A stretch of 64,000 bases of DNA from a virus (lineage: Duplodnaviria; Heunggongvirae; Uroviricota; Caudoviricetes), in the IMG/VR virus record IMGVR_UViG_3300006145_000007, positions 40,400 through 104,399 of that record; one strand, given 5' to 3'. Of this stretch, positions 13,214 to 64,000 are shown one piece after another (positions within the stretch are counted from its first letter, which is position 1; each line of letters starts with the position of its first letter). The position numbers were made by a program, and so were the translations under genes. A model generated the notes under the pieces. That model searched no databases. It was not told where the DNA came from and saw only the letters and a program-made list of their open reading frames with translations.

Positions 13214-13515
13214 TTATCCATCATCTTCTTGATGACATGGTAGATGACATTGCCAAGGAGCGCGCCGGCTGTAGCAGTCAGGAGCGTTTCCAGCGGAGAC
13301 ACCACGATGACGCTATCCAGGTCAACACCATACTCCACACCGTCTTCACCCTCATTGTATACAGTAGTGGTACAGGGCGGCGTCGGGTCACTAAAGGAAG
13401 TGACAGAGTGGATCTTTGTCACCCTGCCGTTCTCGTTGTATTGGTACTCAGTATCCGTGGTAGTTGTCGGTTGTACGATACACATATCAGTTCTCCTTTT
13501 TTTACACAATCCCAT
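13210..13515 (-). CDS. hypothetical protein
   Basis: 101-aa ORF with ATGA-type overlap to the downstream gene. Confidence 0.35.
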   Translation of the reverse strand: MGLCKKRRTDMCIVQPTTTTDTEYQYNENGRVTKIHSVTSFSDPTPPCTTTVYNEGEDGVEYGVDLDSVIVVSPLETLLTATAGALLGNVIYHVIKKMMDK

Positions 13516-14101
13516 AGCTCCCGTATGGGCATTTTACTCTTCTCAGGATGTCGCTCGCGAGAGTGTCATAATCCTCTTTGCAGCCATCGTATTGCGCGCA
13601 AACAACACCATGGTCGTCCAGGAACGCGTGCATTACGTTGGACAGTTCGTCACTCTCGGCTTCAGTCTGGAACCGGCCAGACGGGTTGTAGGGCTTTACC
13701 CTATTGATGAAAACATTCATGGAGTCGTAGGAGTTGAACACCTTCATGATCAGCGCGTCGAACTCCTTGCCAAGAACTTCATCATTTGCGTAGAAACTTG
13801 ACAGCAGAATTGGAGAGTCGGTGATGACCACATCCACTTTACCTTGGACACGGCTGATGCGGAAATACTGCTTACCGAAGATATATGCTTGGTTTTGGAA
13901 TACGGCCTTACTTTCCTCCCACACTTTGTCCTTTACGAACTCAGTTACCAGTTCTGCATTGATGCCGGCCATTTTGAGCTTGGAGAATATGTAGGCCGCG
14001 CCGGTTGATTTGCCGGCGCCGGGAGCGCCAAAAAGATTTACAACAAGCATTTGTCTGCCCTCTTTCTTCATTTCGTTTTCACATACAGCCCACAGTGGCA
14101 T
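13502..14101 (-). CDS. P-loop NTPase, predicted nucleoside/nucleotide kinase
   Basis: Walker A ..LFGAPGAGKST.. and Walker B-like ..VVITDSP..; sits inside the nucleotide-metabolism block. Confidence 0.55.
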   Translation of the reverse strand: MPLWAVCENEMKKEGRQMLVVNLFGAPGAGKSTGAAYIFSKLKMAGINAELVTEFVKDKVWEESKAVFQNQAYIFGKQYFRISRVQGKVDVVITDSPILLSSFYANDEVLGKEFDALIMKVFNSYDSMNVFINRVKPYNPSGRFQTEAESDELSNVMHAFLDDHGVVCAQYDGCKEDYDTLASDILRRVKCPYGSYGIV

Positions 14102-40279: not shown

Positions 40280-40567
40280 CTAATCTTTTGTATAAATCCC
40301 GCCAGCAATATCAAGGTCGCCAACCGCCCGTATACCGAAAAGCCTAATAAATTTTTCGCCCTCCCACCAGTCATACAGAAACTCGATGTCGTCAAAATTT
40401 ATAGGGCTTGCAATCTCCTTATGCAAGTCAAATGTATTGCCGTCATATGAAGTTCCTATCGAAACAATAACCGTATCTGTGATATCATTGCGCTTCCAGT
40501 ATCTTTGAATGTACTCTCCTATTGCGTCATAACCAGATTGACCTTCTTTTAGTTTAATCTCAATCAT
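40280..40567 (-). CDS. hypothetical protein
   Basis: 95-aa ORF. Confidence 0.4.
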   Translation of the reverse strand: MIEIKLKEGQSGYDAIGEYIQRYWKRNDITDTVIVSIGTSYDGNTFDLHKEIASPINFDDIEFLYDWWEGEKFIRLFGIRAVGDLDIAGGIYTKD

Positions 40568-57778: not shown

Positions 57779-58004
57779 TCATTTCACCACCAAATCCCGG
57801 CTTATTCGTCTTCGTCAAGGTCATCTTCAGTACCTGCGAACCGGTCAAAAATTTCCTCATAAGCGTTATTGACGGGGCAAATATCACACGAATCTGCTTC
57901 GCAATGACCTTTGTTGATCTCTTGCCGACAATACTTACTGAAAAGCTCTTTGAACGTTTGCATCTCTTTCTCAGTCATGCTACACCCCTTTACAAAATGC
58001 TATC

Positions 58005-58771: not shown

Positions 58772-59026
58772 TACCTCCTGTCTGTAACATAGGTTTTAGA
58801 AACAGTGATCCCGAGTATCTTATACCTGATGTAGCAGCTATCCACCTGAACGCTGGTCAGGTTCTGCAACCATACCCAGTTCGATATGATCAGTTTTCTA
58901 TATAGCCACATATCACTCTTCCTCATCATCTTCGATTTGGGAGTCATCAACTAACTGCTCGTCCCAGTTAACCTCGATGTCAGATATGACGGCGTCGATC
59001 TTCTTGAAACCATATCTTTCACAAAA

Positions 59027-59251
59027 TTAACTTTTTATAAACTGTTTTCCACACAGAGGACAATGATGTGTTTCTACAATATCTTGAGTTGTAAAACTAC
59101 CATCATTGGCAAGCACTCTTACCCTTAACATCCCCTGCCTGTTTATAGAAATTTCAATCCCGCTGTATTCAACAGTCTGGTTCATTACCACAAAGTCATT
59201 TGTCTCTTGCTCACAATATGGACACTTCATAAAATCAGTCTCCCGTTGCAA
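59027..59251 (-). CDS. zinc-ribbon protein
   Basis: ..CPYCEQ..HHCPLCGK.. Confidence 0.4.
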   Translation of the reverse strand: MQRETDFMKCPYCEQETNDFVVMNQTVEYSGIEISINRQGMLRVRVLANDGSFTTQDIVETHHCPLCGKQFIKS

Positions 59252-60206
59252 TCAAGGCGTTCCCACAGGTGATGCGGTCACTATCCTCTTCCTCACTTGG
59301 GACAAACACGATGACATCCCACCCGGCTGCAACAAGCGGAGCCTCGAACTTACGATAAACATCGTAGTCAGTGTACTCGGTCGTCACATTGAAACCGTTC
59401 TTAACGGCGGACGCCGTCTTGTGGACGGGTGTGATCTTCACCATGAAGGTGTCCTTTTCGAACAGCTCGGACAGCCGGCCGGCGTCCAGGATGGTTTCTT
59501 CTGTGACAGCGAAGTTCAGTGTGTACTTCCGGCCCACGGGGCGGGGGAGGCGACGAGCCAGGACGGAGATTTCCTCCAGACTTAGGCTCATGTTATTGAA
59601 CTGCGCATCACGCTGTTCGTCATTGGTGGAGTTGATACTGAACTGAAGCCCAGCTTCTCCGCCGTATACCTTGTTCTTAATGCGGCACCATTCCAGAATG
59701 AACCCCTCAAGTACCTTGTTATATTTGGGAAGCATGGTGGAAACCACAGGGTGAACGGTATCCGCAGCGATGTACTTGGCGACCAGTTCCCGCAGGTCAT
59801 GTTCGGTGAAAGCGAGAACTTCGCCGTTCCAGGTTGGCTCTCCCATACGGGCGAAGTGGACATTGAACCGGCTGGTTGAGCGCACGTCCTCATTCTTGAG
59901 AATCGTTTCGACCTCATAGGCCAGCTCATCGCGGGAAATATTTCCATAGAAACCAAACTTGGGACAGTCGCAGAACTGACAGTGCATCGGGCAACCCTTC
60001 TGCGTGCTGATGGTGGCGACCCACTTCTGGGTCAGGTCAACGTCATGGTGCTGCACACCATGAATCTCTTTATGGAGGCCGAGGAAGTCAGCCTTGATGT
60101 TGTTCTCCTTCCCATAATCTCCCACGGTCAGAAACTCCAGCTTGCGTTCCCGGTCAACATAGATCTTTCCGGTATGTGTTTTGATAATTTCCATTTCTAT
60201 CACCAA
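59235..60206 (-). CDS. radical SAM methyltransferase-like enzyme of the RlmN/Cfr family
   Basis: ..KGCPMHCQFCD.. Cx3Cx2C; ..FARMGEPTWN.. (cf. RlmN MGMGEPL); C-terminal ..DSDRITCGNALIA.. resembles the RlmN C-terminal catalytic Cys region. Confidence 0.55.
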   Translation of the reverse strand: MVIEMEIIKTHTGKIYVDRERKLEFLTVGDYGKENNIKADFLGLHKEIHGVQHHDVDLTQKWVATISTQKGCPMHCQFCDCPKFGFYGNISRDELAYEVETILKNEDVRSTSRFNVHFARMGEPTWNGEVLAFTEHDLRELVAKYIAADTVHPVVSTMLPKYNKVLEGFILEWCRIKNKVYGGEAGLQFSINSTNDEQRDAQFNNMSLSLEEISVLARRLPRPVGRKYTLNFAVTEETILDAGRLSELFEKDTFMVKITPVHKTASAVKNGFNVTTEYTDYDVYRKFEAPLVAAGWDVIVFVPSEEEDSDRITCGNALIATGD

Positions 60207-60218
60207 ACTATCCTTTCT

Positions 60219-60440
60219 TCAGTAGCGATATATGGTTGACCACTCCACGTTTCTCCAGTCCATTTTCTGGCCGCACTCTCTACAGAACTTATCCTGGTAT
60301 GTACTCCAGTCATCGTCCCCAGTCCCAGTGATGATAAAGCCGCCGACCTCAGACCCACACACCGGACACCCGAAATAGTGATGGTGGACTGCGTGGCTGC
60401 CGGCGTTGCACAAAACAGGAGTTCTCCCTTCGTTCTCCAT
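60219..60440 (-). CDS. small zinc-finger protein
   Basis: ..HHHYFGCPVCGS.. and ..CRECGQ.. Confidence 0.35.
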   Translation of the reverse strand: MENEGRTPVLCNAGSHAVHHHYFGCPVCGSEVGGFIITGTGDDDWSTYQDKFCRECGQKMDWRNVEWSTIYRY

Positions 60441-60574
60441 GAATCAACCCTCCATAACATATTGGCACGGACGGTAAGGAATCGAACCCACCACAAGCGG
60501 TTTTGGAGACCGCCTCGCTACCTTGGAACATGCGCCCGTATATATGGCACTATCGCAGTTCCCGCGTTATTTGC

Positions 60575-61702
60575 TTACCACCACATGGCCGGGAAAACAA
60601 TGGACCAAATTTTCTCAATCTCAGAGACATAGTCGTACTGCTTTTCATCATGGTCATTATACTCAGGCTTGAACGAAAACTCTAATCGCTCGATCATCAT
60701 GTCGATCATTTGTCTCTGTGTGTATTCTTTCCCGTTGTATTCAAATTTGTGGTAGTCCAAATTGACACAACACACATCAACAAATTTCTTCAGCCGTTCA
60801 TAGAGCCACAGGTGGAAAGTGAAGTCCAGATTCCAGGTTTCTCTTTCATCAAAACCGTACTTTGCTCGTTCCAAAGCCCAGGCTCCTTGCCGTTTATCGT
60901 CCATGTTCCAGGTGTCCGGCCGCTGTGTAACGCCGATATCATCCAGATACTTTCTCATAACAGGTTCTCTACGGGAAAATGACGGCATAGGCAAAAGTTT
61001 GTGGAGATTGTGGTCATGCATCTTGGTGATCTTATCGTCCAGTTCCTTATCTCCGGTCGTTCCGATCAGGATAAACTGATCGAGCTGAGCATATGTGAAA
61101 CCGAGATTGTCCTCGTCCGACTTGCCACACAGGCCATCGGATGGCGTTTTATCAATCAGGTCTTTTGGAATAGGAAGCTCATGCCCAATCTGGATGACCT
61201 CGCTCACCAGTAGGTTGGCGAGCGGGCTGAAGTCTCCGGCACTATCCCCAAATTTGGTGGAATACCCGACGAAGTCTTCAGACCTGTTGCAGGTGTTTGC
61301 CACACGCCCGCCGTTCGGGAGAGACTGAGCAACAGCGTAAAGCGTTGTCATACGGATACGGGCGGGGAGGTTCACCTTTGTCTGCTCACTAACCTCCATC
61401 TTGATACGGACTCTGAACAGGATAGAGTCAACAGGACTCTGAATGTTTACCATGTATGAGCGGATGCCAAGAGTCTCCACGATACGTTTGCTGTCATCAA
61501 TGTCGATCTGCTCACCACACGGCATCAAAACACCTACGACTCGTTCCTTCCCAAGAGCCTCGACGCAAAGAGCGGCAACAACACTCGAATCCTTTCCGCC
61601 TGAGATCCCGACCACGGCGTCACAGTGAGGTCCATTCGCATCAAAGTAGTCACGAATCCACTGGACAATAGCGTCTTTTGTTTGCTTTGGATTCTCCAAC
61701 AT
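60575..61702 (-). CDS. nadE: NAD synthetase-like PP-loop amidotransferase (NadE family) with C-terminal extension
   Basis: ..AVVGISGGKDSSVVAALC.. PP-loop at the NadE position; ~100-aa extra C-terminal region. Confidence 0.65.
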   Translation of the reverse strand: MLENPKQTKDAIVQWIRDYFDANGPHCDAVVGISGGKDSSVVAALCVEALGKERVVGVLMPCGEQIDIDDSKRIVETLGIRSYMVNIQSPVDSILFRVRIKMEVSEQTKVNLPARIRMTTLYAVAQSLPNGGRVANTCNRSEDFVGYSTKFGDSAGDFSPLANLLVSEVIQIGHELPIPKDLIDKTPSDGLCGKSDEDNLGFTYAQLDQFILIGTTGDKELDDKITKMHDHNLHKLLPMPSFSRREPVMRKYLDDIGVTQRPDTWNMDDKRQGAWALERAKYGFDERETWNLDFTFHLWLYERLKKFVDVCCVNLDYHKFEYNGKEYTQRQMIDMMIERLEFSFKPEYNDHDEKQYDYVSEIEKIWSIVFPAMWW

Positions 61703-63207
61703 CAGAATCCACCTCCATGAAGATTGTGGCGAACATCCGTCAGAGTATACTGGCGGACGAAGCTACCATCTTTGAAGACAGTCTGGAGCTCATTGTTTTC
61801 CCGAGCCTCTGCCCAGGTTAGCCCGTCTTCATAGGTGTAGTTATCGCCGTCCTTGACCACCCGGCAGCAACCCCGCTGGGACTTCTTGAAGTGACCGGTG
61901 TCAGTCTTGGGGTTCTTGAAAATCATGATAGGTTTGCCGTCGGCATCCTCGGCGTAGGTCGCCTTGACAGCGATGCCGAAAGTGTCGCGGGTGTAGGGTA
62001 CATAATACTTTGTACCCTTATACACCTCTCCATCGTGGATAGTCTCCAGACACTGCATCGAGAAAGAACCGACGCCCAGCGCCACGTTGTTGATGGCGAA
62101 CCCGGCACGTTCCAGGATTTCATAAATCTGCTGGCAGCGCTGGGGCGTGATGCTGTCGCCGTACAGTGCCTTGACATGAGGATTCAGAACCTTGAATCCC
62201 TTACTGTTGACCGTGCCGCCGAAGATATTCCACAGGCGGAACACAGTCTTGGTAACAACCTCAACAGGATCGCCGCTGTCGCCACGAACAGACAGGCAAC
62301 CATCGTGCGTCAGAATCTCATCTTTGAGTTGAGGCAGGATATTGTCTACCAGATTCCAGTAATCGTAGCTGTCGCTGACCATGGAGAAGCTCTGATGAGG
62401 ATAGACCTCGTTCAGCAAGCGCCGGATATGCGTAACTTCATCGCCGTCCATGGCAAAGTTGGAGCACATCACGCTGTGCTCGGTGGACAGGGCGCCATAG
62501 GCGACAGGCTCCTGGGTGCAGTCGCAGTTGTAGTTGTTCTCCAACCAGAGGATGGCGGGGACAGTAGCGGTGTTCAGGAAGCTGAGGCAGAACGCCGCAG
62601 AACTCTTGGTGGCACTCTCAACGCTCTCCTGGCCACGCATGGAGAAATCGCCCAGAAGCCGGGCCCGAACCACGTTGTCATCGCAGGTGCGCTTGGCGAA
62701 CTCGTTGACAATCTGGCGATAGCGGTAGCCGACCTCGGCGGACACCTGAGTGTGCCACATGGTGCAGGACAGCATGGTTTCGATGGAGTTCACCAGCCAG
62801 ACGAAAGCGGGGTGCGTGTTGGAAATCTCAATCTGCGGCACCTTGATGTCGGTGCGCGTCCCCTCTGGCACAGCCCGAATCTCCAAGGGCAAATAGCCCA
62901 GGTCATGGAGGGCTTTCAGTCGCTGTTCTCCGACGCCATCGGTGTTGATGGTGGCATTGAGAACCCGCTTGTACTCGTCCAGCACATCCTCCCAATCTTC
63001 CCAGAAGAAAAAGAGGTTGAAGGCATCGACAAGGTACTCCTTGATGAACGCCTGGAGGCCAAACATCGTGACCTTATCGGTGTCTCCCAGCCGGGCCATG
63101 CGAGGAGTATAGTAGGAGACCATTTTGGTTAGGGTCTGCGGATACTGCTCTGCATGGGCGGTCTTGTAAAAGTCCAAGCAGAGCAGGGGATTATAGGTTG
63201 TTCTCAT
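61702..63207 (-). CDS. nadV: nicotinamide phosphoribosyltransferase (NAMPT/NadV)
   Basis: N-terminal ..LCLDFYKTAHAEQYP.. (NAMPT DSYK..H..QYP signature), ~500 aa. Confidence 0.8.
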   Translation of the reverse strand: MRTTYNPLLCLDFYKTAHAEQYPQTLTKMVSYYTPRMARLGDTDKVTMFGLQAFIKEYLVDAFNLFFFWEDWEDVLDEYKRVLNATINTDGVGEQRLKALHDLGYLPLEIRAVPEGTRTDIKVPQIEISNTHPAFVWLVNSIETMLSCTMWHTQVSAEVGYRYRQIVNEFAKRTCDDNVVRARLLGDFSMRGQESVESATKSSAAFCLSFLNTATVPAILWLENNYNCDCTQEPVAYGALSTEHSVMCSNFAMDGDEVTHIRRLLNEVYPHQSFSMVSDSYDYWNLVDNILPQLKDEILTHDGCLSVRGDSGDPVEVVTKTVFRLWNIFGGTVNSKGFKVLNPHVKALYGDSITPQRCQQIYEILERAGFAINNVALGVGSFSMQCLETIHDGEVYKGTKYYVPYTRDTFGIAVKATYAEDADGKPIMIFKNPKTDTGHFKKSQRGCCRVVKDGDNYTYEDGLTWAEARENNELQTVFKDGSFVRQYTLTDVRHNLHGGGF

Positions 63208-63428
63208 TTCTCATCATCCTCACTTTCAGCTTTCTTTTTCGCATAGTAGATTGCAAATGCAAGAGGAGCTACAATGAACCATAGAGCCGTAATCCATATG
63301 GGCAGATAGCACATATCTTCCAGGTCTGTGTAGCTGTCCTCTTTATACATCAGATAGTAGTAGAAACCACCAAGCGAGGAACCTATGAGAATGTAGATGG
63401 TGAGAAGCAAAATGATTAGAAACGCCAT
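63204..63428 (-). CDS. small membrane protein
   Basis: Two hydrophobic helices (LIILLLTIYILIGSSLGGFYYYL; ALWFIVAPLAFAIYYA). Confidence 0.4.
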   Translation of the reverse strand: MAFLIILLLTIYILIGSSLGGFYYYLMYKEDSYTDLEDMCYLPIWITALWFIVAPLAFAIYYAKKKAESEDDEK

Positions 63429-63604
63429 ATTGTCACCTCAATAGTGAATTTTTTGAACATATCCGCATTTTTTGCAGCGGTATATTTCCGTGTACCCCAT
63501 GGGCATATTTTGTGGAGTGTCCAGTCAGAATAATTGGTGACCCTTGTAATATGCTCCCATTCATGTTTGCAAAAAAAGTGAGCGGATATAGTTGATGAGC
63601 CACC

Positions 63605-64000
63605 TCATTCACCGTCACCAGCCTTAAAGTTGTAGATAGGTTTGATTACCACATCCACATTTACCGTAGGCTCGATATTCCCCACGATATCCTCCATGCC
63701 CTTATAGGCCATAGGGCACTCATCCAGAGTGCTGCGGCCAACGGATGTCGTGTAGATTCCCTCCATCTCCTTCTTGAACTCGGAGACAGTGAAAGTTTCT
63801 TTGGCGGCGCTGCGGCTCATCAGACGGCCAGCGCCGTGTGGCGCTGAGAAGTTCCAGTCCTCATTGCCCTTGCCGGTACAGAGTAAACTGCCGTCCCGCA
63901 TATTGATGGGGATGAGCAGCCGTTCTCCGGCCTGAGCGGAGACAGAGCCCTTCCGAAGAATCATGTTGTCGATGTCAATGTAGTTATGGATGGTGGTGAA
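63605..64000 (-). CDS. rtcB: RtcB-family RNA ligase, C-terminal part (gene continues beyond the window)
   Basis: ..NFSAPHGAGRLMSRSAAKETFT.. (RtcB HGAGR motif); open frame continues upstream past position 64000. Confidence 0.55.
   Translation of the reverse strand, partial: FTTIHNYIDIDNMILRKGSVSAQAGERLLIPINMRDGSLLCTGKGNEDWNFSAPHGAGRLMSRSAAKETFTVSEFKKEMEGIYTTSVGRSTLDECPMAYKGMEDIVGNIEPTVNVDVVIKPIYNFKAGDGE

Follow-up and report, generated by a model that had tools for sequence, protein, structure and literature searches.

Two genes on the minus strand of a 64,000-nucleotide stretch of Caudoviricetes phage DNA (the window; positions 40,400 to 104,399 of IMG/VR record IMGVR_UViG_3300006145_000007) form the downstream half of a conserved, same-strand cassette of four phage genes. 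The first encodes a 501-amino-acid transferase of the nicotinamide phosphoribosyltransferase (NAMPT) family (61702-63207). The second is a 375-amino-acid open reading frame (ORF; 60575-61702) containing the nicotinamide adenine dinucleotide (NAD+) synthase NadE. Both were delimited from the ORF list and family matches. The other two genes, which resemble the nicotinamidase PncA and the phage enzyme Adps, lie outside the window on the same phage. We slightly favour a full reading in which the cassette rebuilds NAD+ through nicotinic acid and deamido-NAD (nicotinic acid adenine dinucleotide, NaAD) from ADP-ribose pyrophosphate (ADPR-PP), and we consider it quite probable that it runs via nicotinate and deamidated intermediates by one route or another. 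An earlier note made from the letters of the DNA (the original prediction) had assigned the pair to phage NAD+ rebuilding and named both gene families correctly; its two-gene NAD unit gives way to a cassette of four.

A Namat-like gene and NadE in a conserved cassette

The transferase contains the signature LCLDFYKTAHAEQYP, from which a NAMPT-family gene of about 500 residues had been predicted, and matches in Pfam (NAPRTase, PF04095, 87 bits; NAMPT_N, PF18127, 35 bits), NCBIfam (PRK09198, 454 bits; cut-off 405) and PHROG (phrog_448, 526 bits) agree with that assignment. Its best solved relatives, at 401 bits, are 9W5X (E = 4e-119) and 9W5W, both the SPbetaL1 Namat of NAD+ reconstitution pathway 1 (NARP1), whereas NAMPT structures reach 148-176 bits (Xcc NAMPT 176, human NAMPT 148). 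NARP1 (Adps plus Namat) and NARP2 were described by Osterman et al. (bioRxiv 10.1101/2024.02.11.579819), and structures of NARP1 enzymes are available (PMC12774641, PMC13586617). The window protein is 36-43% identical to cultured-phage homologues encoded beside a Prs-like gene (Kayvirus, Felixounavirus, ICP1 and mycobacteriophages) and ~28% identical to the T4-like (Klebsiella phage) NAMPT homologue, taken as NARP2-type, which has GGG where Namat has GSF. Judged by these comparisons, the 'NAMPT' of the window is nearer to Namat, the ADP-ribose transferase of NARP1, than to NAMPT.

Mapping the ligand contacts of Namat (PMC12774641) onto the alignment revealed a conserved catalytic core around an altered pocket (Namat numbering throughout). 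The ring-stacking, ribose, phosphate and catalytic contact residues are all kept in the Namat-like clade, with H245, R306 and D308 (equivalent to human H247, Arg311 and Asp313) invariant in 121 of 121 members. Positions 215 and 242, which belong to the nicotinamide pocket in the Namat crystal structure, both differ: D215 (human D219) is Ala in the window protein (motif NTATVPA) and A242 is Ser (STEHS). Asp215 hydrogen-bonds nicotinamide, and the D215A substitution cuts Namat activity ~8-fold (PMC12774641); in the human enzyme, Asp219 sets the specificity of NAMPT for nicotinamide (PMC7096376, PMC12143786). Loss of D215 argues against nicotinamide as the substrate. The adenine clamp is partly kept. 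F392 (GSF) is invariant, T398 and D400 are retained at a motif end that reads (Y/F)TRD, and R40 is present in the window lineage and in 99 of the 121 clade members, while an 18-residue insertion occupies the clamp helix of the window protein (GSFSMQC[LETIHDGEVYKGTKYYVP]YTRD).

Pocket residues and gene content covary. Three viral-contig scans, seeded with the window protein, a mixed alignment and, as a control, canonical Namat, were combined with reference phages into a set of 203 unique NAMPT-family proteins (121 variant, 81 canonical, 1 unclassifiable). The 121 variants have Ala (101) or Ser (20) at position 215, always with Ser242, and all fall in the clade of the window protein. At 98 of the 102 variant loci whose flanks extend 4 kb or more on each side, NadE, PncA and a Prs-like gene occur together. 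Proteins with Asp or Glu at 215 and Ala242, in contrast, have NadE or PncA nearby in 0 of 81 cases, and a Prs-like gene in 75. The same pattern of residues and gene content was found at seven further loci and at 10 loci in bacterial genomes. Gene order is PncA>Prs>NAMPT>NadE in 85 cases and Prs>NAMPT>NadE>PncA in 18, with a few others, giving at least four arrangements that are always on the same strand. Since gene order varies and identity inside the variant clade drops to 43%, the linkage has been kept through rearrangement. Six of ~490 aligned columns separate the two clades, and these include 215, 242 and 239, the last of which lies three residues from 242. The variant is also common in a wider collection (clusters at 50% identity, 1.84 billion representatives), where ~50 of the 150 nearest clusters carry Ala or Ser at 215 with Ser242. 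When Ala/Ser215 representatives of greater divergence served as seeds, mostly the same IMG/VR contigs were found again, and the linkage counts do not extend to the most divergent clusters. Two cultured gut isolates, Dysosmobacter segnis BX15 (NZ_JACOQI010000002.1, about 300-318 kb) and Hominicoprocola fusiformis CLA-AA-H269, have all four cassette genes, NTAT motif included, presumably on prophages; these are loci L237 and L236, respectively. As a separate observation, four Namat-family proteins of 800-1100 residues (P0396, P0410, P0416 and P0419) are interrupted by large insertions, placed precisely at the catalytic ATEHS site or the GSF clamp, that look like inteins or homing-endonuclease insertions.

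NadE follows the Namat-like gene directly, as predicted, and has the PP-loop motif SGGKDS. The NadE part comprises residues 1-243 of the ORF (60974..61702, minus strand), delimited by Pfam, NCBIfam and PDB matches. Pfam NAD_synthase (PF02540) covers residues 11-227 with a score of 172 bits, and the ORF scores 169 bits against TIGR00552 nadE (cut-off 64). No CN-hydrolase match was found in the ORF, so it has no glutaminase domain. All PDB matches of the NadE part are NadE proteins; the best are 2E18 (140 bits) and 3FIU (123 bits), both ammonia-dependent, the latter of which we take to be the nicotinamide mononucleotide (NMN) synthetase of Francisella. The NadE part is 71% identical to a Clostridia protein named NAD(+) synthase (P0092, Acutalibacter muris), a resemblance that suggests NaAD as its substrate. 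A PP-loop enzyme of tRNA modification, the class named in the original prediction as incompatible with a role in NAD+ metabolism, was considered and rejected: QueC (20.2 bits; cut-off 22) and tRNA_Me_trans (18.6 bits; cut-off 20.6) both fall below threshold, and the ORF scores far under the cut-offs of the NCBIfam MnmA and QueC models. The stop codon of the Namat-like gene overlaps the NadE start as TGATG (61700..61704, minus strand) with GGAGGTGGA just upstream, and no convincing promoter or terminator was seen between the two genes. They are translationally coupled.

The upstream half of the cassette was recovered from a second contig, L002, which represents the same phage (99-100% protein identity) and reaches past the end of the window. 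On this contig the pair is preceded, in order, by an isochorismatase-family gene, a Prs-like gene, a phosphoadenosine-phosphosulfate (PAPS)-reductase-like gene, RtcB and a 74-residue ORF. The first two, the PncA-like gene (L002:2208-2744; Pfam Isochorismatase, 91 bits) and the Adps-like gene (L002:2749-3558; 269 residues, 2.5 kb upstream of the Namat-like gene), are predicted to lie about 1.7 to 3.0 kb past the end of the window. RtcB, the PAPS-reductase-like gene and the 74-residue ORF separate the Adps-like and Namat-like genes in this phage; in most relatives the two are directly adjacent.

In 107 unique cassette proteins, the equivalents of Pyrococcus horikoshii D10, D52, H54, H71 and C133 (the Asp and Cys of catalysis, plus an Asp-His-His metal site typical of nicotinamidases) are invariant in the PncA-like enzyme; its catalytic Lys aligned in a comparison with 6KUA, and its best named PDB and NCBIfam relatives are nicotinamidases. 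The Adps-like protein scores 112 bits against the biochemically verified ICP1 Adps and 88 bits against Kayvirus and Felixounavirus Adps, compared with 44 bits for Escherichia coli Prs and 64 bits for the best Prs in the PDB. It falls under every NCBIfam Prs cut-off (TIGR01251, 95 versus 113; equivalog models at most 88 versus at least 296), matches phrog_619 at 243 bits and, as in Adps, lacks an equivalent of the last ~25 residues of E. coli Prs (compare PMC13586617). The catalytic Lys/Arg loop IKHRD and the equivalents of R87, H121, D161, D212 and D213 are conserved. DDIC, F18 and F221 are also kept; D216 is replaced by Ser, A218/A219/S220 by Gly-Gly-Thr, F92 by Lys and F223 by His, and these PP-loop and adenine-stacking positions vary in other assumed Adps sequences too. 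By its scores and its shortened C terminus, the Prs-like protein looks more like Adps than like Prs.

The predicted route to NAD+ and its competitors

In the route we slightly favour, the starting material would be the products of NADase defence effectors. The PncA-type nicotinamidase would convert nicotinamide to nicotinate and ammonia, and the Adps-like enzyme would make ADPR-PP from ADP-ribose (ADPR) and ATP. The Namat-like enzyme, with its amide-recognising Asp changed to Ala or Ser, would join nicotinate and ADPR-PP into NaAD, which the ammonia-dependent NadE would convert to NAD+ with ammonia and ATP. An Adpp-like Macro gene, present in many relatives, would feed ADPR into the ADPR-PP step.

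The genes around the cassettes bear on the identity of the donor. When 146 ORFs surrounding 12 diverse cassettes were compared with Pfam, Macro domains turned up at 5 loci and NADAR at 3, and no adenylyltransferase family recurred among these 12 representative loci. A Macro hidden Markov model (HMM) placed a gene in 73 of the 121 variant loci (60%), usually between the Namat-like gene and NadE (for example L011:11485-11937, L041:11481-11975 and L123:9443-9904, with 70 other loci besides), and in 12 of the 81 canonical loci. The latter figure is in line with the 15% frequency reported for NARP1-AP (Adps, Adpp and Namat), in which the Macro protein Adpp turns ADPR-1''-phosphate into ADPR (bioRxiv 10.64898/2026.01.28.702374). 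The Macro gene of the cassettes matches phrog_335 'phosphatase' (140 bits) and is a DarG-like macro by NCBIfam; in one relative it is fused to NadE as a single 406-residue ORF (L026:11485-12705). About 10 cassettes have, in the usual Macro slot, a ~160-residue protein with a HAD-type DxDxT/V motif and no Pfam match (L052:11452-11925, L136:9436-9924 and L038:11479-11904, among others), which may be an alternative phosphatase. Within the window, no PF01467 match to an NMN adenylyltransferase (NMNAT) was found among the 75 larger ORFs scanned (E at most 1e-4), and none of the window ORFs scanned has a Nudix domain, in keeping with the earlier suggestion that the pair does not work through NMNAT; NARP2 was rejected as a candidate on the same scans. 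Together, the Macro and NADAR genes, the affinities of the Adps-like and Namat-like proteins and the lack of a recurring adenylyltransferase favour an ADP-ribose donor.

Several points weigh against the route from ADPR-PP. The Namat signature GSXΦXΦXΦTRD is half kept, with Met or Phe at position 5 and Cys, Ala or Ser at position 7; Tyr394 and Tyr396 of the clamp are lost; and a variable insertion of about 9 to >40 residues in the loci examined breaks the clamp helix. R40 is Met in one sub-clade. Adenine binding, and hence ADPR-PP use, could have been lost in the Namat-like clade. The PP loop of the Adps-like protein reads DDICSRGGTF, compared with DDICDGAASF in ICP1 Adps, and F92 is not conserved. 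The PncA-like protein scores 31-36 bits against PRK11609, far under the nicotinamidase cut-off of 174, and both it and the Adps-like protein are encoded outside the window itself. The loci are phylogenetically related, so the linkage counts overstate the number of independent events. A deamidated route would also consume an additional ATP compared with NARP1, for no obvious benefit. Lastly, the analysis establishes the gene identities, their conserved linkage and the covariation of pocket residues with gene content, while all substrates and products, as well as the anti-defence purpose, are inferred.

The remodelled adenine clamp keeps alive a competitor based on phosphoribosyl pyrophosphate (PRPP), which we rate as a lesser but serious possibility. 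Here the cassette would boost the Preiss-Handler pathway: PncA would supply nicotinate and the Prs-like protein PRPP, the NAMPT-family enzyme would combine them into nicotinic acid mononucleotide (NaMN), host NadD would produce NaAD, and phage NadE would complete NAD+. Bacteria cannot live without NadD, and the phage could therefore count on the enzyme of its host. This scheme fits the same switch from Asp to Ala or Ser and the same linkage to PncA and NadE, and the degraded clamp, with its insertion and the loss of Y394 and Y396, speaks for it; the retention of F392, T398 and D400, and of R40 in most of the clade, speaks for an ADP-ribose donor. SPbetaL1 Namat still accepts PRPP (PMC12774641), and phage pncB-nadD-nadE clusters are known from gut jumbo phages (PMC11662467), although, unlike those clusters, the cassettes surveyed have no recurring NadD or NMNAT. 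Harder to accommodate are a Prs-like protein that scores higher against verified Adps than against any Prs while missing every NCBIfam Prs cut-off, and the ADP-ribose-handling Macro and NADAR genes embedded in most cassettes.

A second competitor concerns purpose and would fit any chemistry. The genes could form a general metabolic set that raises NAD+ for phage needs such as replication and NAD-consuming RNA repair, rather than for counter-defence, a reading we consider unlikely. RNA-repair genes are interleaved with the cassettes (RtcB here; RlaP and a CCA-adding enzyme in L001, a contig of a related phage; Tpt1/KptA in one further relative), and Tpt1 is a consumer of NAD+. NARP2 raises NAD+ even without a defence system, but an ADPR-dependent route would work only after NAD+ has been cleaved, as argued for NARP1 (both bioRxiv 10.1101/2024.02.11.579819), and Macro/Adpp-like genes point to defence-derived ADPR derivatives (bioRxiv 10.64898/2026.01.28.702374). 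By analogy with NARP1, the counter-defence purpose put forward in the original prediction is plausible.

We find it quite improbable that the cassette is a canonical NARP1 with unrelated helper genes, in which the Namat-like enzyme would make NAD+ directly from nicotinamide and ADPR-PP while PncA and NadE, as independent auxiliary metabolic genes, reinforce the host's deamidated salvage. The Namat-clade affinity and the nearby Adps-like gene would suit such a system, and a NadE ~70% identical to Clostridia NadE suggests recent capture from a host. Position 215, however, is never Asp or Glu where PncA and NadE accompany the gene and always Asp or Glu where they do not (121 versus 81 proteins); the effect of D215A noted above is on nicotinamide-dependent activity (8-fold; PMC12774641); and a phage PncA would destroy the substrate of the Namat-like enzyme itself.

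The two-gene route, in which NAMPT makes NMN and a NadE-like protein with a special C terminus amidates NaMN (Francisella-type) or NaAD, draws on the adjacency and translational coupling of the genes and on a short-type NadE whose second-best PDB match is 3FIU (123 bits), but is highly improbable given that the pair belongs to a four-gene cassette, that the nicotinamide-specifying Asp is absent, that an NMN end-point would still need an NMNAT, which was not found among the window ORFs scanned, and that the C-terminal part arose by accidental fusion and is missing from every other cassette. The deamidated intermediate that its NadE step implied is retained in the route from ADPR-PP; amidation of NaMN is not, as no model that fits the cassette needs it.

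An accidental fusion at the end of NadE

The original prediction had noted an extra C-terminal part on NadE and read it as a domain of a NadE variant. The extra part is present (residues 249-375 plus stop; 60575..60958, minus strand) but is a fused copy of a separate 127-residue phage protein. The HMM and structure analysis proposed for this product showed that residues 249-375 match phrog_17000 and phrog_3857 across their full ~128-residue length; the AlphaFold2 model of this part has a mean confidence (pLDDT) of 95 and no informative match to an annotated fold. We found 252 homologues of the 127-residue protein, and the 120 listed are all free-standing, 122-147 residues long and begin with MRKYLDD; conserved motifs of the family are RKYLDD, GFDERETW, LWLYERL and MWW.

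Comparison with L001 located the event. There, NadE has 248 residues, is 94% identical to the window NadE and is followed by the 127-residue gene as the next, separate ORF, with its own GGAGGA ribosome-binding site and an ATGA overlap. Aligning the two DNAs placed the junction at 60959..60980 (minus strand). One extra base in a TTTTCC run of the window (about 60973-60976) puts both genes in frame, and the linker RREPV replaces the L001 ending MEDYL-stop together with the GGAGGA site. The identical 375-residue fusion is present on 14 contigs, and each of the four contigs inspected derives from a different sample, which makes it a real allele and not a sequencing error. The 127-residue gene was absent within 8-10 kb in >200 other cassette loci. 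A functional NadE extension was therefore rejected, given a free-standing family, separate genes in L001, a one-nucleotide indel, absence from other cassettes and the joining of other NadE relatives to different, unrelated neighbours. The C-terminal 127 residues are an accidental, recent fusion of a neighbouring gene, confined to the window lineage and outside the NAD+ pathway.

NadE ORFs of related phages are often fused to neighbours (P0049, P0052, P0073, P0075, P0104, P0106 and P0078), with partners that include two kinds of DNA methyltransferase, Zn-ribbon proteins and a homologue of the window ORF at 57802-57978; in P0078, NadE is fused with the N-terminal third of the NAMPT-family gene. 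These cases suggest frequent frameshifts or deletions at the NadE gene boundary.

Genomic setting and relation to known pathways

The window derives from a phage of roughly at least 100 kb, and its ORFs include NrdD, ThyX, DNA polymerase III alpha, DnaB, primase, integrases, lysins and a capsid protein. Gut samples, human and other, supply some of its relatives as contigs; further relatives are prophage-like regions in Oscillospiraceae, Lachnospiraceae and Christensenella genomes. A megablast search of positions 59000-64000 against 50,697 phage records returned no match; the nearest deposited record is MT835544, an unannotated faecal scaffold with ~60% protein identity. Between positions 1 and 58000, a pooled Pfam scan of the window ORFs also gave matches to an RVT_1 reverse transcriptase, two tyrosine integrases, a MazF/PemK toxin, a PTH2 peptidyl-tRNA hydrolase, a class-V aminotransferase (E = 5e-83), a Band_7/SPFH protein, Dam and Dcm methylases and a dATP/dGTP diphosphohydrolase. 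A 199-residue P-loop protein (13502-14101, minus strand; GAPGAGKS) matches Pfam AAA_28, to which the ribosylnicotinamide kinase domain of NadR also belongs, and lies 47 kb from the NAD genes.

Directly upstream of the Namat-like gene is the 74-residue ORF (63204..63428, minus strand), which is rich in hydrophobic stretches and whose stop overlaps the Namat-like start codon by 4 nucleotides. It sits between RtcB and the Namat-like gene in the window lineage, and homologues are also present in L006, L007 and L010. The C-terminal part of the RtcB RNA ligase follows at 63605..63964 (minus strand; the listed ORF start is an internal codon). Just downstream of NadE, after a 73-residue Zn-ribbon ORF (60219-60440), lies a gene for a 323-residue radical-SAM protein (59235-60206, minus strand; phrog_24834, 342 bits) whose N-terminal part is weakly RlmN/Cfr-like, an arrangement kept in L001-L005. 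RNA-repair genes are found near the NAD cassette at the RtcB position in the window, at L002:3680-5651 (RtcB and PAPS-reductase-like) and at L001:2399-4766; in L001, RlaP and a CCA-adding/HD enzyme come after NadE. The RNA-repair and NAD genes may form a combined island against tRNA-cleaving and NAD-depleting defences.

Among known systems, the cassette most resembles NARP1 in having a Prs-like gene before a NAMPT-family gene on the same strand, with best matches to Namat (401 bits) and Adps (112 bits), and in its intact catalytic core and the adenine-clamp residues that it retains (F392, R40, T398 and D400). It departs from NARP1 in its Ala or Ser at 215, Ser242, clamp insertion and missing Tyr394 and Tyr396; in an obligatory nicotinamidase and NadE, found at 0 of 81 canonical NARP1 loci; and, in the window phage, in the three genes between the Adps-like and Namat-like genes. 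A Macro-domain gene inside 60% of variant cassettes recalls NARP1-AP, although the window phage cluster is without one and relatives carry it between the Namat-like gene and NadE or have a HAD-like gene instead (~10 loci). As in the Preiss-Handler set PncA-PncB-NadD-NadE and the pncB-nadD-nadE clusters of jumbo phages, deamidation of nicotinamide would come first and amidation of NaAD by NadE last; unlike them, the cassette lacks PncB and NadD and has Namat-clade and Adps-like enzymes in their place. NARP2 (KVP40-type Nampt plus Nmnat) and NARP3 (PnuC plus NadR; PMC13464706) likewise restore NAD+ from phage genes, but no NMNAT, NadR or PnuC was found here. The Francisella NMN synthetase route shares a short, ammonia-dependent NadE, with 3FIU as second-best solved relative (123 bits); it needs a downstream NMN adenylyltransferase, which was not found, whereas the logic of the cassette would require NaAD as the NadE substrate.

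Few outcomes of bacterial immunity against phages are as common as NAD+ depletion. So far, three phage pathways that rebuild NAD+ have been described (NARP1, NARP2 and NARP3), together with one extension (NARP1-AP). Neither a deamidated NARP1 cassette nor a PRPP version was found described in the literature searched, which excluded subscription-only papers, and the cited papers on NARP systems, on phage NAD genes (surveyed in PMC9503650) and on Preiss-Handler gene sets in gut jumbo phages (PMC11662467) make no mention of the four-gene cassette or of a nicotinate-using Namat. We see about an even chance that the clade encodes a novel enzyme activity, a nicotinate ADP-ribosyltransferase that makes deamido-NAD in one step from nicotinate and ADPR-PP and, with nicotinamidase, Adps and NadE, constitutes a fourth phage NAD+ reconstitution pathway; this pathway would be common among gut Oscillospiraceae, Lachnospiraceae and Christensenella, in their phages as well as their prophages. 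The prediction of specificity rests on two pocket residues (215 and 242). If it is true, the cassette adds a nicotinic acid/deamido-NAD route and a new substrate specificity in the Namat family, and the deamidated route may have been selected for a pyridine pool or an intermediate untouched by NADase-based defences. The variant clade is large and occurs in phages of abundant human-gut Clostridia, including two cultured lysogens, BX15 and CLA-AA-H269, which are usable as experimental hosts. Nicotinamide may not be the substrate for many of the phage enzymes now labelled 'NAMPT', and searches for NARP1 by Adps and Namat alone would then merge two chemically different pathways.

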